This document shows positions 3,879-60,817 of a DNA stretch of 64,000 nucleotides, piece by piece. The DNA comes from an uncultured Gemmatimonadaceae bacterium (GTDB taxonomy: Bacteria; Gemmatimonadota; Gemmatimonadetes; Gemmatimonadales; GWC2-71-9): the NCBI GenBank assembly GCA_964638035.1, contig CAZWXD010000001.1, forward strand, positions 70,369 to 134,368. Direction: 5' to 3'. Every line of letters begins with the position of its first letter. Positions within the stretch are counted from its first letter, which is position 1. The notes beneath the pieces are model-generated. The model did no database searches. It was not told the origin of the DNA and was given only the letters and a program-made list of their open reading frames with translations. The translations under genes and the position numbers were made by a program.

Positions 3879-3905
3879 TGCTGCTCGCCCAGGCTGGCCG
3901 CCGTG

Positions 3906-4625: not shown

Positions 4626-4634
4626 GGCGGCTCC

Positions 4635-4663: not shown

Positions 4664-4709
4664 ACGGGCGACGGCCGGGGTGCGAGTCCCGGCGGTATAG
4701 CTTTCGCTC

Positions 4710-8293: not shown

Positions 8294-8440
8294 CCCAGGC
8301 GGCTGGGCAGTCCCCAAGTGTCGCCTGTCAAAGCAGATGCGCCTCGGGCGTCCCTTCTGTGGAGCCGATGCGCGGGCGGGCCAGTTGGCCCTTCCGTAGC
8401 GGAATGAAACCACCACACCCCAAATTGCGTATCTTGAGCC

Positions 8441-11079: not shown

Positions 11080-11609
11080 AGCGCGGGATGCGCCTCCCGG
11101 TCGCCGCGGCGGTCGCACTCGTCATGCTCCCGGGATGCAGGAGCGCCAGGTCGGCCGGCCAGGTCTCGGCCGAGTGGACCAGCGCCGACACCACGATCGG
11201 TTCCGGGAAGCTGGCCCAGGCCGCCACGGCGACCTGGTGCCCGCAGTCGGGCATCCTCATGCTGGTGGCGAGTGGCGCCGACACTGGCGTGGCGGTCCGG
11301 TACCGGTCCGATGCGATTCGCGGCGGCGAGTACCCGGTGGTGGACACGACCTCCACCCGCCAGCCGGCGGGGATCGTGGCCCTCCGCCTTCCGCAGGCGA
11401 CCAGGCTCCTCGCCTTCAGCAGCGACTCGGGGACGCTCACCCTCGATCCCACCGACGGCGCCCTGGTCTCGGGCCGATTCCAGGCCTGGTTCCGCGAACC
11501 TGGCACCGGGGTGCCCGTCGCGCTGGCCGGGCGGTTCACCCGTGTGGCGGTGACCCCGGAAGCGCCAGGATGCGAGGCCGCCCTCCGGCCCACTGCATCC
11601 CCGCAGTAA
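11076..11609 (+). CDS. Lipoprotein, hypothetical
   Basis: Lipobox VMLPGC. Start overlaps the upstream stop (GTGA). Confidence 0.65.
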   Translation: MKRGMRLPVAAAVALVMLPGCRSARSAGQVSAEWTSADTTIGSGKLAQAATATWCPQSGILMLVASGADTGVAVRYRSDAIRGGEYPVVDTTSTRQPAGIVALRLPQATRLLAFSSDSGTLTLDPTDGALVSGRFQAWFREPGTGVPVALAGRFTRVAVTPEAPGCEAALRPTASPQ

Positions 11610-11617
11610 CTTCCGGC

Positions 11618-13826: not shown

Positions 13827-14924
13827 CCTCGCCAAAACTGAGTACGGCCTCGTCCGGCGCGAGCGCCGTCTCCTGCCGGGCCGTGGCGTCGCCCCCCTGG
13901 TAGCGGAACGTCCGGATCCACCCGCCGCAGTAGTCGGAGTAGAAGTATGTCCCCTGCAGGGCCGGCATGGCGGAACCCCGGTACACGAAGCCGCCCGTCA
14001 CGGAGCAGCCATCGCCCCGGCCGTATTCCAGCACCGGCAGGGTGAGCCCGCCCATGTCGCAGCCGGTCGCGGGCTCGAAGCAATGCAGCCCCTCCATCAC
14101 ATTCCAGCCGAAGTTGGTGCCACGTCCCGCGCCATTGCTGGCGGCGACCACGTTCACCTCTTCCCAGGCATCCTGCCCCACGTCGGCAACGTACAGGTCG
14201 CCGGTCGCCCGGTCGAAGCTGAACCGCCACGGGTTCCGGAGGCCGTAGCTCCAGATCTCGCCGCGTGCGCCGGCCTCGCTGGTGAAGGGATTGCCAGCGG
14301 GGATGGTGTACCCGCTGGCCCCCGACACGTCGAGTCGCAGGATCGACCCGAGCAGGTCAGCGCGCGACTGGCCGGTGGCATCGGGGTCACCGCCGCCCCC
14401 GCCGTCCCCCCGGCCCACATACAGGTAGCCGTCGGCGCCGAACACGAGTGCCCGCCGTTGTGGTTGGAGCGGGGCTGTGGCACCACGAGCCGGATGGTGC
14501 CGGAGCCCGGGTCGGCGACGTTGGGGTCGGCGCTTATGATGAACGACTCCAGGACGTTGTCCCCGTCCAGGTTGCTGTAGCTTACGAAGAACCGGCCGTT
14601 GGTGGCGTAGTCGGGGTCGAAGGCGAGACCCAGCAGCCCCTGCTCGCCGCTGTCCCGGATGCGGGACTGGATGTCGAGGAAGGGCGTGTCGAGGAAGGCC
14701 CCGGCGGCATGGATGCGAACCACGCCGCGCTTTTCGGCAATGAAGAGCCGGGCATCGCCTGGCGGCGCGGTGAGCATCACGGGACTGTCGGCGGCGCCAA
14801 GCGGCTGCAGGGCGAGGGCGACCGGGTCGGGCGTGTCGTTGCCGTCGCCCGAGCTGCACGCACCGGCCACGAGCGCCATGGCAGGAAGGACCAGTCGGAG
14901 GATCGTGCAGTGACGCATCGGCAT
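13759..14924 (-). pseudogene. PQQ-dependent sugar (glucose/sorbosone) dehydrogenase lipoprotein, disrupted by a 1-nt frameshift
   Basis: N-terminal half (lipobox LVAGAC, GLLGLAFDPDY, ...PQPRSNHNGG) is in one frame. C-terminal half (LVFGADGYLYVGRGDGGGGGDP...GLRNPWRFSFD...GGFVYRG) is in the -1 frame. The junction at 14449-14450 leaves CA in place of a full codon. Confidence 0.75.
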
Positions 14925-39945: not shown

Positions 39946-40239
39946 ATGTCCCTGGTGGCACTGGATCATGAGCGGCACAGCCGGGCAGACCGGCTCCTGC
40001 AGGACATCGCACGACGGCACGGCCTCCCGGCAGCAGACATCGACGACTATCCCGAACTGGACCGGTTCCTCGTGGCCTTCGTGCCGGAGGCGAGCACCAC
40101 CTTCGCGGCGGCCCACGCCGTCGAGGTCTCGTTTGCCGGCACGATGAGCACTGCACTCAAGGTGCTCCGGCGGGCGGTGGACGAGGCCGACGACAGTGGG
40201 GCGGCCGCGTACATCCACGACCTCGACGCCGGCGGCTGA
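39946..40239 (+). CDS. Small acidic hypothetical protein
   Basis: 97-aa ORF with good GC3; GGAG upstream. Confidence 0.45.
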   Translation: MSLVALDHERHSRADRLLQDIARRHGLPAADIDDYPELDRFLVAFVPEASTTFAAAHAVEVSFAGTMSTALKVLRRAVDEADDSGAAAYIHDLDAGG

Positions 40240-40305
40240 TTCCCGCACCACCGGCGCGCGGGCATCGCGGGGGCGCCAGGCGGGCCCCCGCACGCATGTC
40301 CGCCA

Positions 40306-40334
40306 GTTGACGCAGTGCCAACCGTATTGCATGT
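40306..40334 (+). promoter_or_regulatory. Putative argG promoter
   Basis: TTGACG-N17-CATGTT. The predicted transcript start lies within a few nt of ATG 40344, and no SD is visible. Confidence 0.3.
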
Positions 40335-40350
40335 TTATGCATTATGCAAT
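40326..40350. promoter_or_regulatory. ARG-box-like operator (ArgR site)
   Basis: ATTGCATGTTTATGCATTATGCAAT. Half-sites TGCAT (40328-32) and ATGCA (40337-41, 40344-48). AT-rich palindrome in a 70% GC genome. Overlaps the argG ATG; argR is encoded at the end of the operon. Confidence 0.6.
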
Positions 40351-41552
40351 CCAGCACACCCGTCGTCCTCGCCTTCTCCGGCGGCCTCGATACCTCCTGG
40401 TGCGTTCCCTGGCTGGCGCAGCGGGGCCATGCCGTCCACACTGCCTTCGTCAACACCGGCGGCACCACCCCCGGTGAGCGGGCGGCCATCCGGCGGCAGG
40501 CGCTCGCCGTCGGTGCGGTGCAGCACCACGAGGTGGATGCCCGCGCCGCGGTGTACGAGCGGTTCGTGCGCTACCTCATCCAGGGGAACGTGCTGCGCGG
40601 CGAGGTGTACCCGCTGAGTGTCGCCGCCGAGCGGACGCAGCAGGCCATCTCGGTGACCGAGGTGGCGCGCACCCTCGGGGCCCGCGCCGTGGCGCACGGG
40701 TCCACCGGTGCCGGCAACGACCAGGTGCGCTTCGACGTGGCGTTCCGCGTCCTGGCGCCCGACCTCGAGATCATCACGCCGATCCGCGAGACCGGGCTGC
40801 AGCGGTCGCAGGCCATCGCCGACCTCGAGGCCCGCGGCCTGCCGGTGCCGGCGAAGGCGAGTGCGTACAGCATCAACCGCGGGCTGTGGGGCACGACCTA
40901 CGGCGGCGGCTGGACCCACGACACCTGGGCTGGCCCGCCGGATGAGCTCTTCGAGCCCCCCGCGGACGCCCCGGCCCGGCACGAACTGGTGATCGGCTGG
41001 GAGCGCGGCGTGCCCGTGTCCCTCGATGACGAGCCCCTGGCCCCCGCCGACCTCATTGACCGACTCGGCGACCTGGCCGCCACCTACGGCGTGGGCCGCG
41101 GCATCCACGTGGGGGAGACCGCGCTGGGCATCAAGGGCCGCATCGGCTTCGAGGCCGGTGCCGCGCTGCTCCTCATCCAGGCGCATCGCGAGCTGGAGAA
41201 GCTGGTGCTCACGAAGTGGCAGGTGTTCTGGAAGGACCAGCTCGGCCGCTTCTACGGCGACCGGTTGCACGAGGGCCATTACTTCGACCCCGCGCTGCGC
41301 GACATCGAGGCGCTCATCACCAGTTCGCAGCAGCGGGTCACTGGCGAGGTGCGTGTGCGCCTCGCGGCGGGCCGCGCCCAGGTCACCGGCGCGCGCAGCC
41401 CCAGTTCGATGATGGACCGCGCCGTGGCCACCTACGGCGAGGAGAACCGCCTGTGGACGGGCGACGAGGCGCGCGACTTCGCCCGCGTCTCGGCCATTCC
41501 GGAGCTGCTGGCCCGGCGCGCCGGCAGCGCCGGCACCCCGACTGCCCCGTAG
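40344..41552 (+). CDS. argG: Argininosuccinate synthase
   Basis: VVLAFSGGLDTS...; 402 aa with typical ArgG layout. Confidence 0.95.
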   Translation: MQSSTPVVLAFSGGLDTSWCVPWLAQRGHAVHTAFVNTGGTTPGERAAIRRQALAVGAVQHHEVDARAAVYERFVRYLIQGNVLRGEVYPLSVAAERTQQAISVTEVARTLGARAVAHGSTGAGNDQVRFDVAFRVLAPDLEIITPIRETGLQRSQAIADLEARGLPVPAKASAYSINRGLWGTTYGGGWTHDTWAGPPDELFEPPADAPARHELVIGWERGVPVSLDDEPLAPADLIDRLGDLAATYGVGRGIHVGETALGIKGRIGFEAGAALLLIQAHRELEKLVLTKWQVFWKDQLGRFYGDRLHEGHYFDPALRDIEALITSSQQRVTGEVRVRLAAGRAQVTGARSPSSMMDRAVATYGEENRLWTGDEARDFARVSAIPELLARRAGSAGTPTAP

Positions 41553-41562
41553 TGGAGGTCCC

Positions 41563-42648
41563 ATGCTGACGACCCGGGTGAAGCTCGACAAGATCTCCTC
41601 CTCGACCCGCAACGCGGCGCTGGCGAGCGAGGTCATCGTAGGCCACGACATCGTGGCGCAGGAGGGCTACGTGCTCGCCGTGCGCATCCTGGCCGACAAG
41701 TCGACCTACAACGAGGTGGAGGACCTGGGCGGGCGCATGGTGAAGCTCCGGGCCGGCGACGTGCTCGCGGGCACGCTGGGCACGCGGCGCGCGCTGCGCG
41801 GCTATGCCGGTGTGGTGCCACCGCGCATAGCGGTGGGCGACACCATCGAGGTGCTCAACCTCGGTGGCGTGCTGGGGAAGTGCACCTCGGCCAACCCGGA
41901 CATCGGGCCGCCGTTCAAGGCCGAGGTGCTGGGCGCAGTGCTCACCTTCCCGGAGCTGGGCGACCGGGTGGGTCGGCCGGCGCACATCCGCGACCAGGCG
42001 GTGCCGACGGCCGAGACCCTCGTGTGCGACGTGCCGGTGGTGTACGTGGCCGGCACGTGCATGAATGCCGGGAAGACGGTGGCGGCGACCGAGCTGGTGC
42101 GGGGCTTCTTCCGCCAGGGCATGCGGGTGGCCGCGGCCAAGCTTACCGGCGTGTCGCTCATGCGGGATGCGCTCTCGATGCGCGATGCCGGCGCGGCGGC
42201 TGCGCTCACCTTCAACGACATCGGCATCGCCAGCACTCATGCCGGCGTGACGGTGGCGAGCGCCAAGGGCATCTTCAACCGGCTGGTGCAGGTGCGTCCT
42301 GACGTGATCGTGGCCGAGCTGGGCGACGGCATCCTGGGCGAGTACGGGGTGCAGGACATCCTGGCTGATGCGGAGCTGGCCGCCGCCGGCGCCGCCTGGG
42401 TCATGGCGGCCCCCGACCCGGTGGGCTGCTGGGGTGCGAAGGCACTCATGGCGGAGCGTTTCGGCCTGCCGGTCACTGTCTTCACCGGGCCGGCCACCGA
42501 CAACGAGGTGGGCCGCGACTACGTGAACGCGGAACTCTCGCTGCCCGCGTTCAACGCCCGGCGCGAGGCTGACAAGCTGGTCGCGGTGGTGCAGGCCTCG
42601 GTGGCGCAGTGGCGCGCGACGCGCCCCGCCGAACTGACGCTCGCCTGA
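41563..42648 (+). CDS. Uncharacterised protein with Walker-A-like motif, embedded in arginine operon
   Basis: 361 aa. GGAGG lies 4 nt upstream. Walker-A-like GTCMNAGKT at aa 164-172 (nt 42052-42078). 10 nt after the argG stop and 2 nt before the argC start. No family recognised by eye. Confidence 0.85.
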   Translation: MLTTRVKLDKISSSTRNAALASEVIVGHDIVAQEGYVLAVRILADKSTYNEVEDLGGRMVKLRAGDVLAGTLGTRRALRGYAGVVPPRIAVGDTIEVLNLGGVLGKCTSANPDIGPPFKAEVLGAVLTFPELGDRVGRPAHIRDQAVPTAETLVCDVPVVYVAGTCMNAGKTVAATELVRGFFRQGMRVAAAKLTGVSLMRDALSMRDAGAAAALTFNDIGIASTHAGVTVASAKGIFNRLVQVRPDVIVAELGDGILGEYGVQDILADAELAAAGAAWVMAAPDPVGCWGAKALMAERFGLPVTVFTGPATDNEVGRDYVNAELSLPAFNARREADKLVAVVQASVAQWRATRPAELTLA

Positions 42649-42650
42649 CC

Positions 42651-43685
42651 ATGCGCGTTGCCGTGATCGGGGCCGCAGGCTACGCCGGCGGCGAGCTGCT
42701 GCGCCTGCTGCTGGGCCACCCGGACGTGACGAGCTGGGTGGCCACCAGCCGGAGCCAGGCGGGAAAGCCGGTGGGGGAGGTGCATCCGCAGGTGCGGAGC
42801 CTTACCGCCCAGCGCTTCGAGGCGCTGGCACCCGAAGATGCGGCCCGTGGTGCCGACGTGGTGTTCCTGGCCCTGGAGCACGGCGAATCGTCACGCATGG
42901 TGCCGACGCTCCTGGCGTCGGGCACGCGCCTCGTCATCGACATCGCGGCCGACTTCCGGGTGCACGACCTGGCGCTGCATGAGCGCTTCTATGGCACGCA
43001 CCCGGCGCCCGATGCGCTTCGCCACTTTCGCTACGGGCTGGCCGACATCGAGGGCACGTCCCTCCGGGGTGCCCGCGCCATTGCGGCGCCGGGGTGCTTT
43101 GCCACGGCGGCGCAGCTGGCTCTCTACCCGCTGCGGCACCTGCCGGGCTTCCAGCCCTCGCTCTTTGCAGTGACCGGGTCGAGCGGCGCCGGCGTGCAGC
43201 CGCGGCCCACCACCCACCATCCCGCGCGGGCGCACAACCTCTTCGCCTACTCGGTGCTCAACCACCGTCACGAGGCGGAAGTGCTCTCGAGTTGGCGCCG
43301 CTGGACCGGCCGCCCTGACGCGATGGTGCGCCTGATCCCGCACAGCGGACCGTTCGTCCGCGGGATCCACCTCACCCTCCACGGCTTCAGCGCCCCAGGG
43401 CACGAGGCCGCGGCGAAGGACCCAGCCCTGCTCTTCGCCGAGGCCTACGCCGGCCGTCCCTTCGTGCGGGTGCTGGGGGAGGCCCCGGAACTCACGCACG
43501 TCGTGGGCACCAACGAGGCGCAGGTCTTTGCCGCCGGCACCGGCGATGGTCGCGAGGTGCAGGTGATGGTGGTGGTGGACAACCTGGTGAAGGGTGCCGG
43601 CGGGCAGGCGGTACAGGCGATGAACCTGGCGCTCGGGATCGAGGAGACGCGCGGGCTGCTGGGAGGGGGGATCTTTCCATGCTGA
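42651..43685 (+). CDS. argC: N-acyl-gamma-glutamyl-phosphate reductase
   Basis: MRVAVIGAAGYAGGELLRLL...AAPGCFATA catalytic Cys motif. Confidence 0.9.
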   Translation: MRVAVIGAAGYAGGELLRLLLGHPDVTSWVATSRSQAGKPVGEVHPQVRSLTAQRFEALAPEDAARGADVVFLALEHGESSRMVPTLLASGTRLVIDIAADFRVHDLALHERFYGTHPAPDALRHFRYGLADIEGTSLRGARAIAAPGCFATAAQLALYPLRHLPGFQPSLFAVTGSSGAGVQPRPTTHHPARAHNLFAYSVLNHRHEAEVLSSWRRWTGRPDAMVRLIPHSGPFVRGIHLTLHGFSAPGHEAAAKDPALLFAEAYAGRPFVRVLGEAPELTHVVGTNEAQVFAAGTGDGREVQVMVVVDNLVKGAGGQAVQAMNLALGIEETRGLLGGGIFPC

Positions 43686-44845
43686 TGCCGGGGGGAGCAA
43701 CGGGGCAGGCCGGTGCGCTGCTGCCGGTGTACGCCCAGTTTCCGCTGGTGCCGGCCCGGGGCGAGGGGAGCTGGATCATCGACGTCGACGGCAACCGCTG
43801 GCTCGATGCCTATGGCGGCCATGCAGTGGCCAGCACCGGCCACTCGCATCCGCATGTCGCGCGGGCCATCGCCGAGCAGGCGGCAACCCTGCTCTTCTAC
43901 TCCACCGTGCTGCCGCACCCCAGGCGTGCCGAGCTGGCCGCGCGACTCGCCGGCCACATGCCAGCCGGGGTGGACCGGTTCTTCTTCTGCAACTCGGGGG
44001 CGGAAGCCAACGAGAACGCCATGGCCCTGGCCCGGAAGCGCACGGGGCGCGAGGTGGTGGTGTCGGTCACGGGAGGGTGGCACGGCCGCAGCGTGGCCAC
44101 GCTGGCCGTCACCGATGGCGCGAAATACGAGGCAGGGGCCCGCCGTGCGGGGATGCCCCTGTCGCTCCGCGTGCCGTTCGACGACGTCGAGGCGGTGGAG
44201 CGGGCGGTGGACGAGTCCGTGGCCTGCCTGATTATCGAGCCGGTGCAGGGGATGTCGGGTGCACGCGACTGCTCGCACGAGTTCCTCCGTGCGGCGCGTG
44301 ACGCCTGCAGCCGGCATGGGGTGGCGCTCATCTTCGACGAGATCCAGTGCGGCGTGGGGCGCTCGGGGCACTTCACGGCGGCGGGGTTGTACGGCGTCAC
44401 GCCCGACGCCATCACGATGGCGAAGGGCCTGGGCTCCGGCTTTCCCATGGCGGCGGTGGCGGTCGGTGATTTCCTGGCCGAGGGCGTGTCCACCGGCGAC
44501 CTGGGGAGCACCTTTGGTGGCGGCCCGCTCGCGTGCGCCGCTGGCCTGGCCACGCTCGACGTCATCGAGCGTGAGGGCCTGGTGGCGAACGCCGCGCGCG
44601 TGGGCGGCATCCTGCGGGATGGTGCCCTTGCCCTGGGCGTTCCTGGTGTCCAGGGGCACGGGCTCCTGCTGGGCCTTCGCCTTGGACGGCCAGCACAGGC
44701 GGTCCAGCGGGCGCTCTTCGGGAAGCGTGTCCTCACGGGGACGGCCAGCGATCCCGACGTCCTGCGGCTCCTGCCGCCGCTCACCTTCAGCGAAGCGGAG
44801 GCCACGCTGCTGTTGCGGGCGCTGGGCGAGGTGCTCACCGCGTGA
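43679..44845 (+). CDS. argD: Acetylornithine/succinylornithine-family aminotransferase (class III PLP)
   Basis: FFCNSGAEANE...IFDEIQCGVGRSG...MAKGLG. Confidence 0.9.
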   Translation: MLMPGGATGQAGALLPVYAQFPLVPARGEGSWIIDVDGNRWLDAYGGHAVASTGHSHPHVARAIAEQAATLLFYSTVLPHPRRAELAARLAGHMPAGVDRFFFCNSGAEANENAMALARKRTGREVVVSVTGGWHGRSVATLAVTDGAKYEAGARRAGMPLSLRVPFDDVEAVERAVDESVACLIIEPVQGMSGARDCSHEFLRAARDACSRHGVALIFDEIQCGVGRSGHFTAAGLYGVTPDAITMAKGLGSGFPMAAVAVGDFLAEGVSTGDLGSTFGGGPLACAAGLATLDVIEREGLVANAARVGGILRDGALALGVPGVQGHGLLLGLRLGRPAQAVQRALFGKRVLTGTASDPDVLRLLPPLTFSEAEATLLLRALGEVLTA

Positions 44846-45600
44846 CGCCCCCATTCCTGCTGGTGCACAGCCTGGGCGGGCGGGCCGCCTTCTGGGATGC
44901 GGTGCGCCGGGCGATGCCTGCGCCGGCGGTCACGCATGCCTTCGACCTCCCCGGACATGGTGCCGCCCGGGGCCAGCCGGCGCGGTCGCTCGATGACTTT
45001 GCCACCGCGGTGCTGCGCGATGCTGACCGGGCCGGGCTCACGACATTTGTGCTCGTGGGCCACAGCTTCGGGGCGCTGGTGGCGCTGGCCGCCGCCGTCC
45101 GGGCAGGGGCCCGCGCGGAAGCGCTGGTGCTGGTGGATGCGGCCGGCGCGATGAATGCGGTGCCCGCCGGGGCACTGGAGGACTTCCTGGCCCGGGCCTC
45201 CGGCCCCGCGGGGCGCGAGTTCGTGGCCCAGGCATACGAGCAGAACCTCGAACGGGCGGCACCAGCCACGAAGGTGTGCGTGCTCGACTCGCTTGCGGAT
45301 ACCGACATGGATGCCGTCGTGGCCGCGTACACCGCACTCTTCGGCAGCGACTCCCCGGGCCTGCTGTCGCGCTATCCGGGTCCGGTGCGCCTCATTGTCG
45401 ATGCCGCCAACGATTCGCCCATGGCCCTGCATGCGCAGCACCCCGACCTGGACGTCGTGCCGGTCGAGGGCACCAGCCACTGGATTCCCCTCGACCAGCC
45501 GGGAGCCATTGCCACCGCGCTTGCCGGATGGCCGGCGCCCGGCCGTGGGGCAGGGACCCGGCCACAGCCTACCCACACCCAACGAGCGTCGGTGACATGA
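44842..45600 (+). CDS. Alpha/beta hydrolase embedded in arginine operon
   Basis: GHSFG nucleophile elbow (aa 73-77) and C-terminal GTSHW. GTGA overlap with argD and ATGA overlap with argF'. Confidence 0.8.
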   Translation: MTPPFLLVHSLGGRAAFWDAVRRAMPAPAVTHAFDLPGHGAARGQPARSLDDFATAVLRDADRAGLTTFVLVGHSFGALVALAAAVRAGARAEALVLVDAAGAMNAVPAGALEDFLARASGPAGREFVAQAYEQNLERAAPATKVCVLDSLADTDMDAVVAAYTALFGSDSPGLLSRYPGPVRLIVDAANDSPMALHAQHPDLDVVPVEGTSHWIPLDQPGAIATALAGWPAPGRGAGTRPQPTHTQRASVT

Positions 45601-46616
45601 AGCGCGACTTCCTTTCGATGGAATCGTGGGGGCAGGACGCCTGCCTGGCCATCCTCGACCTTGCGGCTCGGGTCAAGCGCGGCGAGGTGCTGGGCGGGCT
45701 CGAGCGGAAGGTCATGGCGATGGTGTTCATGGACCCGAGCCTCCGCACGCGGGCGAGCTTCGAGGCCGCGATGTTCCTGCACGGGGGCCACGGCATCGTG
45801 CTCGAGCCGGGGAAGGGGAGCTGGTCGCTCGAGACCGAGCCCGGCGCGGTGATGGACGGCACCACGGTGGAGCACATCCGCGATGCCGCAAGGGTGCTGG
45901 GTCGCTATGCCGACGTGCTCGGGGTGCGCACCTTCCCGCGCGGCACCGACTGGGACACGGTGCGGCAGGACCTCGTCATCCGGCGCTTCGCCGAGTACTG
46001 CGAGAAGCCCGTCATCAACCTCGAGTCCAGCCGGCGCCACCCCTGCCAGGGGCTCGCCGATGCGCTCACCCTGCGCGAGAAGCTGGGTGATCCCCGGGGC
46101 AAGCGGTTCGTGCTCATGTGGGCCTGGCACCCGAAGGCCCTGCCCACCGCCGTGCCCGCCAGTGCGGCGATCGCCGCGGCGATGCTGGGGATGGAGGTGG
46201 TGATCGCCCGGCCGGATGGCTATGAGCTCGACCCCGAGGACACCGCACTGGTGCGCCAGCTTGCGCGGGACAACGGTGCGATGATCCACATCAACAACGA
46301 TCCCGACGATGCCGTGGTGGGGGCCGATGCCGTGTACGTGAAGTCGTGGGGCTCGGTCGCCCACTTCGGGAGGCCCGATGACGAGGCGGCCGCACGGCAG
46401 GGCCTGCGCGACTGGCGGCTCACCGTGCCGCGCCTCCGCTCGACGCGGGGCGGCAAGGGTGCGGTCATGCACTGCCTTCCCGTGCGGCGCAACGTCGAGC
46501 TCGATGACGCGGTCATCGACGGGCCGAACTCGGTCGTGGTGGACGAGGCAGAGAACCGGCTGCACGTGCAGCGGGCGTTGCTCCTGGAGATGCTTGGAAA
46601 GGATCCATCGCGATGA
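45597..46616 (+). CDS. N-acyl-L-ornithine carbamoyltransferase (AOTCase/SOTCase family, argF')
   Basis: FMDPSLRTRASFE...GAVMDGTTVEHIRDAARVLGRY...RRHPCQGLAD...HCLPVRRNVE...DEAENRLHVQ parallels the Xanthomonas and Bacteroides argF' enzymes as remembered. Confidence 0.9.
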   Translation: MKRDFLSMESWGQDACLAILDLAARVKRGEVLGGLERKVMAMVFMDPSLRTRASFEAAMFLHGGHGIVLEPGKGSWSLETEPGAVMDGTTVEHIRDAARVLGRYADVLGVRTFPRGTDWDTVRQDLVIRRFAEYCEKPVINLESSRRHPCQGLADALTLREKLGDPRGKRFVLMWAWHPKALPTAVPASAAIAAAMLGMEVVIARPDGYELDPEDTALVRQLARDNGAMIHINNDPDDAVVGADAVYVKSWGSVAHFGRPDDEAAARQGLRDWRLTVPRLRSTRGGKGAVMHCLPVRRNVELDDAVIDGPNSVVVDEAENRLHVQRALLLEMLGKDPSR

Positions 46617-47548
46617 CGATCGACCCGACGAAGGGCATTGCCGGCCTGAAGGGCGCCCTCCGCTACGTGCGGGCATACCGCGACCGCGTGTTCGTGGTGA
46701 AGCTGGGGGGCGACGTGCTCACCGACGCCGACGTCCTCGACCACGTCACGGCCCAGCTCGCCCTGCTCGCGTCGCTTGGCATCCGCCTCGTCGTGGTGCA
46801 CGGCGGCGGGCCCCAGGCGTCGGCGCTGACCCGCCGCCTGGGGGGCGAGCCCACCATGGTGGCGGGCCGGCGGGTCACCGACGACCAGGCCCTCGAGGTG
46901 GCCAAGATGGTGTATGGCGGGCAGCTCAACATCGACCTGCTGGCCGCCCTGCGCGAGCACCGGCTGCAGGCGGTGGGGCTGAGCGGGGTGGATGCCGACC
47001 TCCTCACGGCCCGCCGGCGCCCGCCGGTGAACGTGGTGGATGACGCCGGCGCCTCGCGCACGGTGGACTACGGCCACGTGGGCGACATCGTGCGGGTGGA
47101 CACCCACGTGCTCACGACACTCATGGACGCGCGCTGCGTGCCGGTGATCGCGAGCCTGGCGGGCGACGACGAGGGCAACGTGTACAACGTGAATGCCGAC
47201 ACGGTGGCCGAGTCGGTGGCCGTGGCCCTGCAGGCATTGAAGCTCATCTTCCTCACCGGGGCGCCGGGCGTCCTGCGCGACCGCACCGACCCCACCACCC
47301 TCGTCACCTTTGCCGACCCGGACGACCTCGAGGGGCTGATGGCGAGCGGTGCGCTGGCCGGCGGGATGCGGCCCAAGGTGGAGGCGTGCATCCGGGCGGC
47401 GACAAGCGGCGTGGAGCGCACCCATATCATCGACGGCCGGGCGCCCGACGCGCTGCTGCTCGAGGTGTTCACCGGTGCCGGGTGTGGCACCATGATCGTG
47501 GGGCGGAAGGAGAAGGCCACCTACCTTGGCGTCGACCTCGCCGGCTGA
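46613..47548 (+). CDS. argB: N-acyl-glutamate kinase
   Basis: FVVKLGGDV...VVVHGGGPQ...NVNADTVA. Confidence 0.9.
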   Translation: MTIDPTKGIAGLKGALRYVRAYRDRVFVVKLGGDVLTDADVLDHVTAQLALLASLGIRLVVVHGGGPQASALTRRLGGEPTMVAGRRVTDDQALEVAKMVYGGQLNIDLLAALREHRLQAVGLSGVDADLLTARRRPPVNVVDDAGASRTVDYGHVGDIVRVDTHVLTTLMDARCVPVIASLAGDDEGNVYNVNADTVAESVAVALQALKLIFLTGAPGVLRDRTDPTTLVTFADPDDLEGLMASGALAGGMRPKVEACIRAATSGVERTHIIDGRAPDALLLEVFTGAGCGTMIVGRKEKATYLGVDLAG

Positions 47549-48605
47549 AGTCCAGCTCCTCGCCGACCTCATTGCCATTCCCTCGGTCAGTGGCGACGAG
47601 GGAGCGGTGGCCCGTCACGTGGAAGGCACGGTGCGGGGCTGGGGACTCGACGTGGTCCGGGGAGACTGGGGCGTGCGGGTGGAGGTGCGGGCCCCCCACC
47701 CCGGACCGACGCTGGCCCTGGTGTCCCACCTCGACGTGGTGCCCCCTGGCGAGGGATGGACCCGCGACCCGTGGGCGCCGGTGATGGAGGAAGGACGCCT
47801 CTACGGCCGGGGTTCCGGCGATGCCAAGGCGTCGGTGGCGGCGATGCTCCAGGCCGCGCGCGACCTGGCGGAGGCCGGTGGCCCGCGCCACGGCCGCCTC
47901 CTCGTGGTGCTCGGGCTGGGCGAGGAGACGAAGCACACGAGCATGCCGCGCGCCCTCGAGGCGGTGGGCACCGTGGATGCCGCCCTCGTGGGTGAGCCCA
48001 CCAACCTCGACCTCGCCGTCGCACAGCGCGGCCTCATGATGGTCGACCTGGTGGCCCACGGCGAGCAGCGGCACGCCGGCTACGGCGCAGGGGAACCGTC
48101 CAGGAATGCCGCCGTCGAGCTGGCCGCCGACCTGGTGCAACTCGGCTCCCTCTGCCAGGGCCGCGAGCACCCCATCCTGGGCCGCGTGTCGCTGACCCCC
48201 ACGATGCTGGAGGCCGGTGTCAGCCGCAACGTCACGCCACCCTCGGCACGGGCGGTGCTCGACATCCGCAGCACCCCGGCATGGTCCCACGACGAGATCG
48301 CCGCGGAGTTGCGCCAGCACCTGCGCTCGGAGGTGGTGGTGACCTCCACGCGCCTCGTACCCTGCGAGACGCCACCGCGATCGCGCCTGCTCACAGTGGC
48401 GTTACGCGCGCGACCGGCGGCCAGGCAGTATGGCAGCCCCACCTGCTCCGACTGGGTCTTCCTCAACGGTCGCGACGTGATCAAGGTGGGGCCCGGCACC
48501 AGCCGGCGGTCGCACACGGCCGACGAGTACGTGGACCTGGCAGAGGTGACCGAGGCCCGCGCCTTCTATGGCCGCGTGGCGGAGGACTACCTCAATGAGG
48601 CGTGA
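47526..48605 (+). CDS. M20-family deacylase (ArgE/DapE-like)
   Basis: LIAIPSVSGDE...SHLDVVPPGEGW...RGSGDAKASVAAM...GEE. TTG start overlaps argB. Confidence 0.8.
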   Translation: MASTSPAEVQLLADLIAIPSVSGDEGAVARHVEGTVRGWGLDVVRGDWGVRVEVRAPHPGPTLALVSHLDVVPPGEGWTRDPWAPVMEEGRLYGRGSGDAKASVAAMLQAARDLAEAGGPRHGRLLVVLGLGEETKHTSMPRALEAVGTVDAALVGEPTNLDLAVAQRGLMMVDLVAHGEQRHAGYGAGEPSRNAAVELAADLVQLGSLCQGREHPILGRVSLTPTMLEAGVSRNVTPPSARAVLDIRSTPAWSHDEIAAELRQHLRSEVVVTSTRLVPCETPPRSRLLTVALRARPAARQYGSPTCSDWVFLNGRDVIKVGPGTSRRSHTADEYVDLAEVTEARAFYGRVAEDYLNEA

Positions 48606-50043
48606 TGGCCGGGCGTCCAGGCGTGCAGGCGCGCCGTCGGGGAGAATGGCGGCACCCCGCACGCCTCCCCGCTCGCACGTCCGCACGCCGACGCTGTGGG
48701 GCGCCGCGACCGACGCAGCCGTCCACGCCTATACCGTGGCGGACGACCGCACCTGGGACACCCGCCTGCTCGAGTGGGACATCCTCGGCAGCCTCGGACA
48801 TGCCCGCGGCCTTGTGCGGAGTGGCATCATCGCCGCCAGCCGGCACCGGGAGGTGGAGCGGCTGCTGCGGCAGGCGCTGCGTGCCGCGCGCGCCGGGCGC
48901 CTGGTCATCGGCCCGGCGCACGAGGACGTGCACTCGGCCGTGGAGTTCTGGCTGACGCGCCGGTCGCGCACCGCCGGCGGCATCCTGCACACCGGCCGCT
49001 CGCGCAATGACCAGGTGGCGGTGGACCTGCGCCTGTACCTGAAGCACGAACTCCTGGCGCTGCACGCATCGGCCACGCACCTGGTCGACGGGTTGGCCCG
49101 GTTCGCGGCGCGGCATCGCACTGTCGTCTGGCCAGGGTACACCCACCAGCGCCGGGCCATGCCGTCATCGGCGGGGGTGTGGGCTGCAGCGTACGCCGAG
49201 GGGTTGCTCGACACGCTGGAATCGCTGCCGGCACTCTGGGCCAGGGTGGACCGGAGCCCGCTTGGGAGCGGCGCCGGCTATGGGGTGCCCCTTCCACTCG
49301 ACCGGCGTGCCACGGCACGGGCACTCGGGTTCGCCGGGATCGACCACGCCGTGGGCCTGGTGCAGAACAGCCGCGGCAAGCTGGAGGCGGCAGTCCTCCA
49401 CTGGTGCAGCGAGCTGGGCCACGAGCTGGGCAAGCTCTCCAGCGACGTGATCCTCTTCAGTGCGGAGGAGTTCGGGTGGCTCGTGCTGCCGGCGCACCTG
49501 GCCACCGGGTCGAGCATCATGCCGCAGAAGCGGAACCCCGATGTCTTCGAGTTGACGCGCGGGCGCGCCGCGCTGGTGGAGGGTGCGCTGACGACGGTGC
49601 TGGCGGTCAAGCGCGGCCTTCCCGGCGGCTATCACCGCGACTTCCAGTTCCTGAAGGCGCCGCTGATGAGTGGCGTGGAACTCACGGGTGCGATGCTCGG
49701 GATGATGGCCGTGGCGGTCCCCGCCCTCGGCGTGGACCGGGCCCGCGGGCGAGCGGCGCTCAGGGGCGATGTGCTGGCCACCGACGAAGCCCTGCGCCGT
49801 GCGCGCGAAGGCCTCCCGTTCCGGGAGGCCTACCGCTCGGTGAGCCGTGACCTCAAGGCGGGAGTGGCCATGCCACCCCTGGCTGACGCGGTGATCCTGG
49901 CGGCGCGCACGAGTGCCGGCGCCGCGGGCAACCTGGAACTCGACCAGGTGCGGGCGCGCCTTCGCGCTGCGGGGCGCTGGCACGCACGGGAGCAGCGCCG
50001 CTTTGCGCGCGCCATGCAGGCACTGGCCGGGCGGCGCCGGTGA
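48595..50043 (+). CDS. argH: Argininosuccinate lyase
   Basis: LWG...DILGSLGHARGL...HTGRSRNDQVA...GSSIMPQKRNPD. Alternative start at ATG 48646. Confidence 0.9.
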   Translation: MRRDGRASRRAGAPSGRMAAPRTPPRSHVRTPTLWGAATDAAVHAYTVADDRTWDTRLLEWDILGSLGHARGLVRSGIIAASRHREVERLLRQALRAARAGRLVIGPAHEDVHSAVEFWLTRRSRTAGGILHTGRSRNDQVAVDLRLYLKHELLALHASATHLVDGLARFAARHRTVVWPGYTHQRRAMPSSAGVWAAAYAEGLLDTLESLPALWARVDRSPLGSGAGYGVPLPLDRRATARALGFAGIDHAVGLVQNSRGKLEAAVLHWCSELGHELGKLSSDVILFSAEEFGWLVLPAHLATGSSIMPQKRNPDVFELTRGRAALVEGALTTVLAVKRGLPGGYHRDFQFLKAPLMSGVELTGAMLGMMAVAVPALGVDRARGRAALRGDVLATDEALRRAREGLPFREAYRSVSRDLKAGVAMPPLADAVILAARTSAGAAGNLELDQVRARLRAAGRWHAREQRRFARAMQALAGRRR

Positions 50044-50507
50044 CGCAGGACCGCCGGCGGCGTCACCTCCGCATCCTGGAGATCATCAGCACCCGAGCCA
50101 TGCGCACGCAGGAGGAACTGGCGGACGCCCTGGTGGCGGAAGGGTGGCAGGTCACGCAATCGTCGGTGAGCCGCGACATCGCGTCGCTGCACCTGGCCAA
50201 GGTCGATGGGGTGTACCGGAAGCCGGCGCGTGCGCAGGTGCGCGATCCGGATGAACTGCGCATTGCAGAGGGCGTGCTGGCGGCCGAGGCAGCGGGCGAT
50301 GCACTTGTGGTGTTGCACACGCCGCCCGGCGAGGCCAACCGGGTGGGCATCGCACTCGACCGGCTGGCGTGGCCCGAGATCGTCGGCACCATCGCCGGGG
50401 ATGACACCATCTTCCTGGCGGTGGCAAACGCCACCGGCCAGCGCACCGTCATGCGGCGGCTGGCCGGCCTGGCGTTGCCCGGAAGTTCCCGGGGCCGACC
50501 CGCCTGA
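50040..50507 (+). CDS. argR: Arginine repressor
   Basis: TQEELADALVAEGWQVTQSSVSRDI winged helix and C-terminal GTIAGDDTIF. GTGA overlap with argH. Confidence 0.9.
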   Translation: MTQDRRRRHLRILEIISTRAMRTQEELADALVAEGWQVTQSSVSRDIASLHLAKVDGVYRKPARAQVRDPDELRIAEGVLAAEAAGDALVVLHTPPGEANRVGIALDRLAWPEIVGTIAGDDTIFLAVANATGQRTVMRRLAGLALPGSSRGRPA

Positions 50508-58098: not shown

Positions 58099-58171
58099 TG
58101 GGGTGTAGCTCAACAGGCAGAGCGCCCGGCTGTTAACCGGGAGGTTGCTGGTTCGACCCCAGCCGCCCCAG
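58099..58171 (+). tRNA. tRNA-Asn (anticodon GTT)
   Basis: Hand-folded cloverleaf of 73 nt. Acceptor TGGGGTG/CGCCCCA, D stem GCTC/GAGC, anticodon stem CCCGG/CCGGG with loop CTGTTAA, T arm GCTGG-TTCGACC-CCAGC, discriminator G. No encoded CCA. Confidence 0.9.
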
Positions 58172-58234
58172 TATCCCCCCTCAGAAATGCCCTCGGCTCC
58201 TGGTCGAGGATCATTGACTGCCAGAATCCCCCGC

Positions 58235-58858
58235 CCCCGAACCGGTCGCACCGGCAAGCGCTTCGTGACGCCGCGCTGATGATCCGTGAGCGCCCAGCGG
58301 AAGTGGAGGACCGCGCCGTGCCGGGCCACTGGGAAGGTGACCTCATGCTCGGGCTCGAGCGTTCGGCCATCGGGACGCTGGTCGAGCGCACCTCCCGATT
58401 CACCCTGCTGCTGCACCTCCCGCGCCTGCCGGGGAATGCGCACCACCGACACGAAGAACGGAGCGCCGCTCGCGGGGCACGGCGCGGCGGCGGTCCGCGA
58501 CGCGATCACCTGCGCGTTACGCACGCTGCCGACGCAACTCCGCCGCTCCCTGACGTGGGATCAAGGCGCGGAACTCGCAGCGCACGCCCAGCTCCACATC
58601 GACACGGGCCTGGCGATCTACTTCTGCGATCCGCAGAGCCCGTGGCAGCGGGGGACGAACGAGCACACCAATGGCCTCCTCCGCCAGTACTTTCCCAAGG
58701 GCACCGACCTGAGCGTCCATTCGGCCGCCGAGCTGACGGCGGTCGCCCTGGCCCTGAACACGCGCCCCCGGAAGACGCTCAGGTGGCGCACCCCTGCAGA
58801 AGCCCTGAACGACTTCATACGATTACCGCAGGACAACCCTGTTGCGACGACCGGTTGA
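58235..58858 (+). mobile_element. IS30-family transposase remnant (N-terminally truncated, frameshifted)
   Basis: [22 protein letters not shown]...[20 protein letters not shown] is in one frame. AVRDAI...[17 protein letters not shown]...[33 protein letters not shown]...LNTRPRKTL is in another. The HTH-containing N-terminus is missing. Confidence 0.8.
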
Positions 58859-58979
58859 GTCCGGGCACCACACCCCGACCGAAGCCCGGCGCGACCTCTT
58901 TCAGTACCTCGAAGGCTGGTGCAACCAGCACCGGCGCCACTCCGCCCTCGGCAACCAGTCACCCGTCAACTACGAACGC
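58859..58979 (+). mobile_element. IS3-family transposase C-terminal fragment
   Basis: [32 protein letters not shown] matches the conserved IS3 OrfB C-terminal end. Only about 40 codons remain, abutting the IS30 remnant. Confidence 0.6.
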
Positions 58980-59150
58980 GTGATGCTGGCCCGGGCAGCG
59001 TGAGATCCCAAGACGCTACCTCTCCACGAAAGCGGGTGAACTCCACTGCTGGTATAGGTCATTCGTCCTATTGACGAAGCGCCGGCCAAGAGGCACCCTT
59101 CAGTAAGCCAACGACACAATGAGAGTTCCCGCACCTTGGAGGAGTACCAA

Positions 59151-59831
59151 ATGCGGCTGCGTACGACATCGACGTACTTTGCAGCGGCAGGGCTGGTGCT
59201 GTTTGCGGCTGCATGCTCCGAACCAGATCAGTCTGGCGGGCCAAGCAACGCAGAGCATGGCGCCGGGGTGGTGGCTGTTGTTGGTGAGAATAGGGCCATA
59301 CTCATCCCGGTGGCAGATAGCACGCGAGCCATACTGGCCGGGCTGTGGCTTCGAAGCCGGGGTGGCGTGGGCGTTCCGGGCATTGAGCGCATGGTAGGAA
59401 CCGCTCCTGATGGAGCGGTGATCGTCTCGGAGGTTACCAGAGGCGAAGACGGGCGAATTGTTGGCCTTCGCACGATAAGGAACGGAGTTGCTCTTCTGGA
59501 GAGTGTGATTGGCAGCGACGGGCGCGCTAGTCATCGCGTCGGGGGCGGACGGATCAAGATAGACGCGTCACTTGCTGGCGTTCAGGTCGGTCTCAGCGAT
59601 ATCGCCAGGGCCACGGCCCCCGGAGGAGGGGGAGGCCAGGATGATTGTGCCTTGGCGACTGCCGCATACTACCTTGCTTGGGGGACTTTACTCTTGGTAG
59701 TCGCGACGACACCACTTGATCCTACCCCGCTTCAGTTGCTAGGCATAGCTTTGGCGGCAGCGAACGCCGCGAACGCGCAAGCGAACATGCACTTTTGGTG
59801 CAATCAGCAGCAGGGGGGAGGAACGCCGTAA
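59151..59831 (+). CDS. Hypothetical lipoprotein (islet cargo)
   Basis: GGAGG upstream of ATG 59151. Lipobox LFAAAC. Lower GC than the surroundings. Hydrophobic, Cys-containing C-terminus. Confidence 0.55.
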   Translation: MRLRTTSTYFAAAGLVLFAAACSEPDQSGGPSNAEHGAGVVAVVGENRAILIPVADSTRAILAGLWLRSRGGVGVPGIERMVGTAPDGAVIVSEVTRGEDGRIVGLRTIRNGVALLESVIGSDGRASHRVGGGRIKIDASLAGVQVGLSDIARATAPGGGGGQDDCALATAAYYLAWGTLLLVVATTPLDPTPLQLLGIALAAANAANAQANMHFWCNQQQGGGTP

Positions 59832-59833
59832 TC

Positions 59834-60163
59834 ATGCTTAGAACAACCCTTGGTCGCGTTGTACTTGCCGGGTTGCTCATTGTCCTGGTGTATGGTGCAG
59901 GTAGGGCCTTGCCGATTGGGCCCGGCAGTGGTCGCAGCATCCGTGTCGTTGGCGGGCTATTAGCTCTTGGCGCAGCTGTGCTGTTTGTCGTGCTGCAGGC
60001 TCGCCGACGCATTTGGCCCGAGGTCCTGCCCGTGCTGGGGTTCGTCGGGTGCGGCGTTGCTTACGCGGTTGGAAACCAGACGGGCGTCTTCCTCGCCAAC
60101 GCCGCTGCACTTGTCCTGGTTGCCTGTTTTGGTATGCTGGTCAGAAGGGCGAATCCCAAGTGA
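59834..60163 (+). CDS. Small polytopic membrane protein (islet cargo)
   Basis: Starts 2 nt after the upstream stop. 109 aa with 3-4 predicted TM helices. Confidence 0.55.
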   Translation: MLRTTLGRVVLAGLLIVLVYGAGRALPIGPGSGRSIRVVGGLLALGAAVLFVVLQARRRIWPEVLPVLGFVGCGVAYAVGNQTGVFLANAAALVLVACFGMLVRRANPK

Positions 60164-60215
60164 GCGGGACGGGCAAGGCAGCCTGCTGAAGACAGCCTTG
60201 GCTCCTTGGCGTTGG

Positions 60216-60817
60216 GGGCACCTGCGCGGGGACTGTCAGAAAGTCTGTGTATGAGCCATATCCCATGAGAAGGAGGGAGGGAGTATGGCTCGGACACCGA
60301 AGCGCCCGTTGGGGTTCACGGATGCCGCCCTGGATGAGTTGCTGCAGGGGGCCCGGTCACCGGAGGAGCTGGACGAGGTCTTTCGCACGCTGAAGCGGGC
60401 GATGACCGAGCGGATCCTGCGGGCCGAACTGACGGACCATCTGGGGTACCCCGAGGGCGGCGACCGCCCGTTGGGCGAGGGCAACGCCCGCAACGGGACC
60501 ACGCCCAAGACGGTGCTGACCGACGCGGGGGCGTTGCCTCTGGCGATCCGGCTCCTCTACTCGACCAATGCGATCGAGAGCCTGCACCGCATCCTGCGCC
60601 AGGCCCTCAAGGTGCGCGGCCACTTCCCCACGGACGACGCCGCCAGCAAGCTCCTCTATCTCGCGCTCCGGAACGCCACGCTCCGCCTCGCGCCACCCCA
60701 TCACGGGATGGTCGCCATGCAGCACATTACCCTGTTGTTCGGGGACCGGGTGCCAAGCGCCCGATGATCACCACGGCTCATACACAGACTATCGGACACT
60801 CCCCCGCGCACTTGCCC
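60216..60817 (+). mobile_element. Internally deleted IS256-family element with intact terminal inverted repeats
   Basis: Imperfect terminal IRs of about 42 nt (37/43 matches by eye), including a perfect 16-bp core AGTCTGTGTATGAGCC at 60242-60257 and 60775-60790. Encloses the truncated transposase ORF. Confidence 0.7.
60285..60767 (+). pseudogene. IS256-family transposase with in-frame deletion of the DDE core
   Basis: N-terminus LDELLQGARSPEELDEVFRTLKRAMTERILRAELTDHLGY...GNARNGTTPKTVLTD is joined directly to the C-terminus YSTNAIESLHRILRQALKVRGHFPTDDAASKLLYLALRN. 160 aa versus about 400 for intact members. Confidence 0.75.

Follow-up and report, generated by a model that had tools for sequence, protein, structure and literature searches.

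An arginine operon of probable succinyl type in a Gemmatimonadaceae genome, with an orphan P-loop protein as candidate first enzyme

Which protein makes the N-acylated glutamate that enters an arginine operon without ArgA or ArgJ? This question is raised by a 64,000-nt stretch of contig CAZWXD010000001.1 from an uncultured Gemmatimonadaceae bacterium (the whole of which is hereafter called the window; G+C about 71%). Ten co-directional open reading frames (ORFs) on its + strand, at 40344-50507, read argG, an orphan gene for a protein with a Walker A motif, argC, argD, an alpha/beta hydrolase gene, argF', argB, an M20-family deacylase gene, argH and argR. We consider it fairly probable that this is an ArgR-controlled arginine operon that works through succinylated intermediates, with the orphan as its first enzyme and the hydrolase as an accessory; what we observed directly are the gene identities, the layout of the operon, the signature residues of ArgF', the ArgB fusion, and how widely the orphan and the hydrolase occur and how well they are conserved, and what we infer in this reading are the enzymatic activities, the acyl donor and the binding of ArgR.

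The operon and its acyl group

The genes were assigned to families by NCBIfam and Pfam scans of the ten operon proteins, as follows.

40344-41552, + strand: argG, argininosuccinate synthase (TIGR00032, 289 bits, above the cutoff of 268; both Pfam domains)
41563-42648, + strand: orphan P-loop protein of 361 aa, candidate N-succinyl-L-glutamate synthase
42651-43685, + strand: argC (TIGR01850, 327 bits, above the cutoff of 234)
43679-44845, + strand: argD, predicted N-acyl(succinyl)ornithine aminotransferase, class III (Aminotran_3, 305 bits)
44842-45600, + strand: alpha/beta-fold serine hydrolase of 252 aa, lineage-specific accessory (Abhydrolase_6/Abhydrolase_1)
45597-46616, + strand: argF', knotted acyl-ornithine transcarbamylase with the signature of a succinylornithine transcarbamylase (NF003384, 400 bits)
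46613-47548, + strand: argB, predicted N-acyl(succinyl)glutamate kinase (TIGR00761, 223 bits, above the cutoff of 151; AA_kinase domain)
47526-48605, + strand: M20 deacylase, probably an N-succinylcitrulline desuccinylase (Peptidase_M20 and M20_dimer)
48595 (or 48646)-50043, + strand: argH, argininosuccinate lyase (TIGR00838, 294 bits, above the cutoff of 279.5)
50040-50507, + strand: argR, arginine repressor and last gene of the operon (both Pfam ArgR domains above their cutoffs)

Not all family matches reach their cutoffs: ArgD scores 327 bits against the acetylornithine/succinylornithine transaminase family models, which is short of the equivalog cutoffs, and ArgR reaches 109 bits with TIGR01529 (cutoff 130). 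The ORF and family scans bear out the ten genes, their order, coordinates and families as they had been read from the letters of the window in an earlier note (the original prediction), together with its junction values, which we recomputed from the coordinates as +10, +2, -7, -4, -4, -4, -23, -11 and -4 nt. A single compact arg unit, as proposed there, is supported; the junctions at argH and the M20 gene shift with the start codon assumed. For argH, two starts come into question: ATG 48595 lies 8 nt 3' of GGAGGA and gives an overlap of 11 nt, and ATG 48646 is closely preceded by GGGAGA and leaves a gap of +40. The M20 gene starts with TTG, and the initial residues of the protein are retained in 31 of 64 loci.

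A one-genome-per-species scan with the orphan family gave at least 593 confirmed stretches. The best 80 of these were kept and, together with locus L001, form a set of 81 related loci (L001-L081) that were compared by tblastn of the ten window proteins. The best 80 stretches are mostly from Gemmatimonadales, and also from metagenome-assembled genomes (MAGs) of Myxococcota/'Deltaproteobacteria', Acidobacteriota (Thermoanaerobaculia), Planctomycetia and Elusimicrobia. The comparison of synteny that the original prediction had called for finds the order kept: it recurs in about 60 related loci and is therefore not due to chance. The commonest order is argG-orphan-argC-argD-argF'-argB-M20-argH-argR. 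Variant clusters were seen at L074, L076, L078, L080 and L092. Some Myxococcota/'Deltaproteobacteria' MAGs carry orphan-argC-(argD)-argB-M20-(argR)-argG-argH, a cluster without argF', and L092 reads argR-orphan-argC-argD-argF'-argB, with M20, argG and argH not nearby.

The absence of ArgA and ArgJ from the operon, which had also been predicted, is confirmed by the domain scans of its ten proteins, and neither a GNAT nor an ArgJ domain was found when 40 further ORFs of the 64-kb window were included. A LysW/ArgX carrier-protein pathway was considered as well and rejected, since neither an ATP-grasp nor a LysW gene is present and the highest scores of ArgB, ArgC and ArgD are those with arg models.

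An indication of the acyl group carried by the intermediates is given by ArgF'. This protein is a member of the knotted branch of transcarbamylases that comprises N-acetylornithine transcarbamylase (AOTCase) and N-succinylornithine transcarbamylase (SOTCase), and scores 306 bits with the Xanthomonas campestris AOTCase, 176 bits with the Bacteroides fragilis SOTCase and at most 165 bits with ordinary ornithine transcarbamylases in the PDB. Its closest PDB match is the E92V mutant of the X. campestris AOTCase (3l06) rather than the wild type, because the window protein has a valine at that position. Residues V91, P183 and E301 align to E92, N185 and K302 of the X. campestris enzyme, and it is the residues at positions 92, 185 and 302 that separate AOTCases (E, N and K) from SOTCases (A/S/P/V/Q; P; V/I/E) (PMC4581275). 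Replacement of E92 by A, P, S or V is described as making the enzyme specific for succinylornithine (Shi 2007, cited by bioRxiv 10.1101/2024.10.14.618325). Among 65 loci in which argF' adjoins an orphan homolog, the residue at position 92 is V in 63, I in one and A in one, and in none of them Glu. Given the V/P/E triad, and 65 of 65 neighbouring ArgF' proteins without Glu, the operon is very probably of the succinyl type. The original prediction, in which ArgF' takes acylated intermediates to acyl-citrulline for the M20 enzyme to deacylate, is supported by the sequences, and the choice between acetyl and succinyl, which it had left open, is sharpened to succinyl. The NCBIfam name N-acetylornithine carbamoyltransferase is then likely to be a systematic misannotation of ArgF' across these genomes.

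The M20 protein matches PF01546 (92 bits) and PF07687 (54 bits), and reaches 145 bits with the ArgE/DapE subfamily model, which is below cutoff. As all subfamily and equivalog models of NCBIfam stay below their cutoffs, the substrate is not set by homology. The metal-ligand motifs HLD, GDAK, GEET, GEPT and SHTADE, read by eye, are all present. The closest solved structure is 3ct9 (183 bits), which we take to be a structural-genomics entry from Bacteroides thetaiotaomicron, and the Xanthomonas acetylcitrulline deacetylase 2f7v (49.6 bits) and the ArgE structure 7rsf (within 50-57 bits) follow far behind. That the M20 protein is closer to 3ct9 than to the acetyl-specific enzymes fits with a succinyl pathway.

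The orphan as candidate first enzyme

No match to the orphan was found in Pfam, NCBIfam or the PDB sequences at default thresholds; the single protein and the family profiles A1 and A4 gave sub-threshold P-loop matches only in these three collections, and an exact look-up of the window protein returned no record. The family is nevertheless large, with more than 2,800 homologs in a protein collection clustered at 90% identity and 1,400 matches with E <= 0.001 among representatives at 50% identity. The best 120 homologs are 76-98% identical to the window protein, and the named ones are called 'hypothetical protein' and come from Gemmatimonadales/Gemmatimonadota MAGs. The orphan gene lies inside an arg cluster in all 81 related loci, and members at 40-50% identity (L090, L091 and L092) are likewise found within arg clusters. 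In all, about 90 loci show this context, and the phyla concerned include Gemmatimonadota, Myxococcota, Acidobacteriota and others. In conservation, the orphan ranks third among the operon proteins: in the Gemmatimonadales loci, ArgB has a median identity to its window counterpart of 80.6%, ArgG of 77.4% and the orphan of 75.8%, and ArgF', ArgR, ArgD, M20, ArgC and ArgH are all lower.

A further link to the start of the pathway comes from a fusion protein of 626 aa, P0234, in which residues 1-317 match the orphan over its residues 43-355 (with 38% identity and E 8e-49) and residues 352-619 match ArgB (37% identity, E 4e-41). The identical protein is encoded on four metagenome contigs (L082-L085; on L082 at 8001-9881) from four JGI samples. 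Its called start is too far downstream, as the frame runs on upstream through the missing N-terminal part. With the second-step enzyme as its partner, the orphan-ArgB fusion is as expected for a first-step enzyme and has parallels in classical ArgA and in bifunctional ArgA/ArgB proteins. The fusion gene adjoins an arginase-family gene and stands outside any arg operon. An apparent orphan-ArgC fusion (P0240) was rejected as a frameshifted, low-complexity mistranslation.

The first step is the only one without a gene and the orphan is the only core gene without a step, and we therefore pair the two. As the sole unassigned core gene, strongly conserved, found in arg clusters of several phyla and fused to ArgB, the orphan is the best candidate for the N-succinylglutamate synthase. 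The original prediction had regarded the enzyme that makes N-acyl-glutamate as not identifiable here; context, conservation and the ArgB fusion now make the orphan a strong candidate.

This idea has a precedent. Appendix 2 of the GapMind 2026 preprint predicts Steroidobacter denitrificans ACG33_RS14135 (A0A127FCT3) to be an alternative N-succinylglutamate synthase: a hypothetical protein that is virtually always encoded in arg operons, whose homologs never co-occur with ArgA homologs, whose neighbouring ArgF' proteins have A, P, S or V at position 92 in 90% of cases, and which gives a weak Foldseek match to 7XRJ (root-mean-square deviation (rmsd) 5.6 A, E 1.4e-7) (bioRxiv 10.1101/2024.10.14.618325). 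Judged by context, ArgF' pattern and the weak similarity to 7XRJ, the window orphan and ACG33_RS14135 very probably belong to the same family. Steroidobacter was not among the best 80 loci, nor among the named matches of two orphan-family protein searches, look-ups of protein clusters returned 'hypothetical protein' as the sole name, and a protein search seeded with P0125, which comes from a cluster without M20 as in Steroidobacter, led to Myxococcota MAGs. The statement in the original prediction that the first enzyme of the succinyl variant is not firmly assigned in any organism is therefore outdated on two counts: besides this predicted non-GNAT family (bioRxiv 10.1101/2024.10.14.618325), the first step in Bacteroides has been assigned by genetics to the GNAT protein BT3761, whose mutant is rescued by arginine and which is co-fit with arg genes and repressed by arginine (PMC8121099, PMC7311316).

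An AF2 model of the orphan, built on 46 family members (pLDDT 96.2, pTM 0.93), has two domains joined by a linker: the all-beta N-domain spans residues 1-128, and residues 158-353 form an alpha/beta P-loop domain with the Walker A motif GTCMNAGKT at residues 164-172. Foldseek matches in the PDB are confined to the P-loop domain. The top match is BioD (3of5, E 2.8e-6); FtsY and Ffh are also matched, HypB (2hf8) has the best TM-score (0.61), the DUF1611 protein 2obn ranks sixth (E 1.8e-5) and DgcN (7xrj) ranks 47th (E 1.9e-4, rmsd 5.3 A). The N-domain, encoded at 41563-41946, carries many invariant Gly, Pro and Arg residues (GxLGxRxALxGxxGxxP, LNxGGVxG), and when modelled alone (pLDDT 96.4) it gave no significant Foldseek match in the PDB (best E 0.46). 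By sequence, the DUF1611 P-loop domain is the top Pfam match for the four orphan members tested, at sub-threshold scores (17-24 against 25 bits); the window protein reaches 17.1 bits over residues 155-193 only and its relatives 19-24 bits. In a profile search of the PDB sequences with the orphan family, BioD comes first, with E 0.009-0.02 over about 50 residues. The orphan GTCMNAGKT aligns with GTDTEVGKT of BioD, and Lys193 with BioD Lys37. Invariant among the 46 family members are P86, G170, K171, K193, E252 and D285, and T172 and D202 are near-invariant. Scores with the BioD family models are below cutoff (TIGR00347, 14.3 against 83.3 bits; AAA_26, 12.4 against 27). On this evidence, we place the orphan within the SIMIBI class of P-loop proteins, in the part that comprises BioD and DUF1611. 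Membership in DUF1611 itself is contradicted by the Pfam score and by the N-domain alike.

The original prediction had treated the orphan and the hydrolase as two non-canonical inserts. They are not equivalent, the orphan being ancient and part of the core and the hydrolase a recent and narrow acquisition. The hydrolase is encoded in only three of the 81 loci (L001, L002 and L003), which are the closest relatives of the window, and in the other 78 loci argF' directly follows argD wherever both are in the cluster. In L001-L003, it is 47-57% identical to the window protein, where the neighbouring genes are at 71-89%. Its ortholog group comprises about 40 clusters at 90% identity, with 41-82% identity to the window protein, beyond which generic hydrolases follow; the orthologs examined (L086-L089 and L093-L098) all lie between argD and argF'. 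This distribution points to a recent and fast-evolving acquisition by one narrow subclade of the Gemmatimonadales. The hydrolase is absent from 78 loci and therefore carries out no essential step of the shared pathway. The nucleophile motif GHSFG and the C-terminal histidine (SHW) are conserved in the orthologs. Similarity to BioH, PcaD and MenH is weak and partial (PcaDC, 74.7 against 390 bits; BioH, 51 against 207), and matches in the PDB span the N-terminal 100 residues only. We speculate that the hydrolase might be an auxiliary desuccinylase, recycle the succinyl group or repair a side product specific to succinylated intermediates. That it is a pseudogene was rejected, as copies other than that of L001 are intact and the catalytic residues are present, and that it replaces a dead M20 enzyme was rejected, the metal-ligand motifs of the latter being in place. 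The L001 copy has one frameshift (13330-14020), on a 3.5-Mb contig that is perhaps assembled from long reads, and in L086 argC is broken by a single frameshift (3802-4834) into ORFs of 105 and 249 aa. Both genes are otherwise conserved and lie on long contigs (0.4-3.5 Mb); the two frameshifts may stem from errors in sequencing or assembly and not mark true pseudogenes.

We propose that the orphan converts glutamate to N-succinyl-L-glutamate, with succinyl-CoA as the likelier donor by analogy with the distantly related DgcN. ArgB, ArgC and ArgD would then lead from N-succinylglutamate to N-succinylornithine, and ArgF', acting as a succinylornithine transcarbamylase, would form N-succinylcitrulline. 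The M20 enzyme would remove succinate from this compound to yield citrulline, which ArgG and ArgH would turn into arginine, and ArgR, encoded last, would repress the operon at an operator palindrome overlapping the promoter. The hydrolase would stand outside the core pathway, probably with an auxiliary role in hydrolysing a succinylated pathway compound or by-product.

Several points weigh against this proposal. The activity of the orphan family is a prediction only, in the preprint as well as here, and a shared family with ACG33_RS14135 is probable only. The similarity to DgcN is weak and unspecific, since BioD, FtsY and HypB score equally well or better, and in the orphan model the N-domain of the DgcN type is replaced by an unrelated all-beta domain. 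The P-loop, Lys193 and the ELGDG motif are as compatible with a ligase that uses ATP as with a transferase that uses CoA. ArgF' exceeds the NCBIfam equivalog cutoff for N-acetylornithine carbamoyltransferase (400 against 288 bits), and the absence of ArgA, ArgJ and a BT3761-like GNAT holds for the 64-kb window only. Finally, the catalytic Ser and His of the hydrolase and its place in the operon are kept down to 41% identity, so that the protein is likely functional in its subclade.

The rival that deserves most attention, although we regard it as rather doubtful, keeps the pathway and changes the chemistry of its first step: the orphan would be an ATP-dependent amide ligase of the BioD/CobQ type, which converts free succinate to succinyl phosphate, couples it to the amino group of glutamate, uses no acyl-CoA and takes up again the succinate released by the M20 enzyme. 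BioD 3of5 heads the Foldseek list ahead of DUF1611 and DgcN, the best PDB sequence matches of the C-domain profile are BioD proteins whose P-loop and Lys37 align with those of the orphan (Lys193), residues K171, K193, E252, D285, T172 and D202 would meet the needs of a Mg-ATP phosphoryl-transfer site, and the N-domain of DgcN is lacking. However, the BioD sequence matches are marginal in E value and length, and DUF1611, not BioD, is the top, if sub-threshold, Pfam match in all four members tested. Nor do we know of another ATP-dependent ligase of this fold that forms N-succinyl amino acids. The only characterised enzyme of the superfamily that N-acylates glutamate is named an N-acetyltransferase (title of 7xrj; bioRxiv 10.1101/2024.10.14.618325). 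By this precedent alone, we lean slightly towards succinyl-CoA, as opposed to succinate plus ATP, as the donor. One might go further and speculate that the orphan is a BioD-like succinate:L-glutamate ligase that holds its substrate with the all-beta domain and gives the pathway an ATP-dependent start free of acyl-CoA, that the succinate from the M20 step is recycled, and that the hydrolase clears a succinyl side product, for example by reopening a succinimide ring; this fuller version strikes us as unlikely.

Two other explanations seem to us very improbable. The intermediates might be acetylated as in Xanthomonas, with ArgA or ArgJ encoded elsewhere in the genome, and the orphan might have another role, for instance as a regulator or as a SIMIBI-type NTPase that supplies the M20 enzyme with its metal. 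This would agree with the NCBIfam score of ArgF', with the presence of HypB-type metallochaperones among the best structural matches (2hf8) and with a search for ArgA and ArgJ that covered 64 kb. The three specificity residues of ArgF' are nonetheless of the succinyl type, with a succinyl-type residue at position 92 in 65 of 65 related loci; clusters with the orphan and without M20 exist (L092; Steroidobacter according to bioRxiv 10.1101/2024.10.14.618325); the fusion partner of the orphan is ArgB and not M20; and the homologs of ACG33_RS14135 are reported never to occur together with ArgA (bioRxiv 10.1101/2024.10.14.618325). Just as improbable is that the hydrolase itself is the first enzyme, either as a MetX-like acyl-CoA:glutamate N-acyltransferase that forms an acyl-serine intermediate or as an ArgJ-like protein that recycles the succinyl group from succinylcitrulline to glutamate. 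Acyltransferases of the alpha/beta fold exist, weak matches to the homoserine O-succinyltransferase MetX (E 2.8e-6) and to an AcoC-type acetyltransferase subunit were obtained, the catalytic Ser and His are conserved and the gene is translationally coupled within the operon. Yet it is missing from all 78 other related loci, so that the pathway common to them cannot depend on it, is conserved far less well than its neighbours and scores far below the cutoff with every family model.

Promoter, operator and surroundings

Upstream of argG, two elements were read from the sequence.

40307-40312, + strand: -35-like hexamer TTGACG of the putative operon promoter
40328-40341, + strand: ARG-box-like palindrome TGCATGTTTATGCA, probable ArgR operator, overlapping the -10 region

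Both lie in an A+T-rich island (40307-40346) within the 71% G+C DNA, in which TTGACG is followed after 17 nt by CATGTT. The palindrome ends 2 nt 5' of the argG ATG and is the sole perfect TGCAT-N4-ATGCA in the 64-kb window. An element like it, with at most two mismatches, precedes argG in 66 of 74 related loci, and in most of these 74 a hexamer resembling TTGCGC or TTGACA is found at the same spacing 5' of the palindrome. A scan with the sigma-70 consensus did not call the TTGACG promoter, and inside the operon the sigma-70 and terminator consensus scan gave nothing usable. In the Gemmatimonadales loci, the start codon directly follows the palindrome and the leader of the argG mRNA would measure 0-3 nt, which implies that this mRNA is leaderless or nearly so. 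In the four Acidobacteriota-type loci L070, L072, L073 and L077, the palindrome is instead followed by some 40 nt of leader that end in a Shine-Dalgarno sequence of the GGAGG or GGGAG type. An operator placed over the -10 region and argR as the last gene suggest a simple, autoregulated repression by the end product, in which ArgR would bind the palindrome. In a search against Rfam, no riboswitch or leader RNA was found in the operon, and the only match in the window was a tRNA-Asn.

The following genes flank the operon.

Upstream: genes for an amino-acid permease, an OmpA-like, a MarR, a glyoxalase-fold and a dienelactone-hydrolase-like protein, and an ORF of 97 aa
Downstream: genes for a 566-aa protein without domains and two Ser/Thr kinases

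Directly 5' of argG, two M42-family peptidase genes are present in L001 (6737-8724) and L086 (1-1445), and in L087 (1-650) a single M42 gene can be seen there together with a gene for a PIN-domain protein; the corresponding part of the window (39946-40343) has no M42 genes and just the 97-aa ORF. Many real genes are overlapped by long antisense ORFs (up to 561 aa) whose third codon positions are rich in G+C, for example at 43897-45582 on the - strand. Such ORFs are a usual artefact of DNA with 71% G+C, by which a simple gene caller based on third-position G+C is misled. Elsewhere in the window, a homolog of the formaldehyde-activating enzyme Fae (2434-2973, - strand; Pfam 233 bits) hints at a C1 metabolism linked to tetrahydromethanopterin. 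In the longest ORF at 11135-12862, the IspH/LytB domain begins only at residue 210; position 11135 probably lies far upstream of the true start. The tRNA-Asn (58099-58171) is followed by fragments of an integrase core (58286-58858) and of a Mutator-family transposase (60285-60767), with a fall of the G+C content to 0.645, and the stretch 58099-60767 resembles what remains of a mobile element that had integrated at the tRNA.

Known pathways and relatives compared

Arginine synthesis through succinylated intermediates is established in Bacteroidetes, where a GNAT enzyme comes first (PMC8121099, PMC7311316). In at least 593 stretches of species-representative genomes from several phyla, the same chemistry is apparently begun by an unrelated P-loop protein. 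If this is true, a recurrent gap in the metabolic reconstructions of abundant soil bacteria would be closed, the misannotation of ArgF' as N-acetylornithine carbamoyltransferase would be corrected, and an enzyme family of unusual architecture, with its acyl donor in question, would be added. The idea of the orphan as first enzyme is already contained in the GapMind 2026 preprint (bioRxiv 10.1101/2024.10.14.618325), and what we add is support and not discovery: the ArgB fusion, the conservation ranking, the breadth of the distribution, the operator and sharper mechanistic alternatives.

With ACG33_RS14135, the window orphan shares its arg-cluster context, the succinyl-type ArgF' neighbours, the lack of a named domain and the proposed role in the ArgA step. 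The matches to 7XRJ are similar in rmsd (5.6 A there and 5.3 A here), with a weaker E value in our case (1.9e-4, against 1.4e-7). A gene of the ArgE type is absent in Steroidobacter, whereas the M20 gene is present in the window operon. The hydrolase, the ArgB fusion, the N-domain and a BioD-like alternative mechanism are not mentioned in the preprint.

The pathway of Bacteroides, with the SOTCase BT3717 and an N-succinylglutamate kinase, follows the same predicted route from succinyl-glutamate over succinyl-ornithine and succinyl-citrulline to citrulline. The succinyl signature of ArgF' and a predicted M20-family desuccinylase are also common to both, and BT3549 is the candidate for the latter in Bacteroides (PMC8121099, PMC7311316). 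The two differ in the first enzyme, which is a GNAT protein there; here no GNAT was found in the 50 ORFs scanned, and the operon has an unrelated P-loop protein in its stead. The ArgF' of the window is nearer to the Xanthomonas AOTCase (306 bits) than to the B. fragilis SOTCase (176 bits). The AOTCase pathway of Xanthomonas uses the same knotted ArgF' subfamily and likewise forms an acyl-citrulline that is then deacylated. Unlike there, the three specificity residues are V/P/E and not E/N/K in the window, and the M20 protein is distant from 2f7v (49.6 bits).

Among the P-loop proteins, DgcN and DUF1611 (7XRJ, 2OBN) belong to the same superfamily as the orphan, and the orphan would N-acylate glutamate as does DgcN, a D-glutamate N-acetyltransferase according to the title of 7xrj. 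The orphan is set apart from DUF1611 by its score (17 against 25 bits over about 40 residues) and its all-beta N-domain, and the A1 and A4 profiles find no DUF1611 structures by sequence. BioD resembles the orphan in the G-x5-GKT P-loop, in the lysine after strand 2 (BioD Lys37) and in an E-x-G-x-G motif after a hydrophobic strand. The orphan is only marginally similar to BioD in sequence, carries an additional N-domain of 130 residues and is encoded in the context of arginine rather than biotin synthesis.

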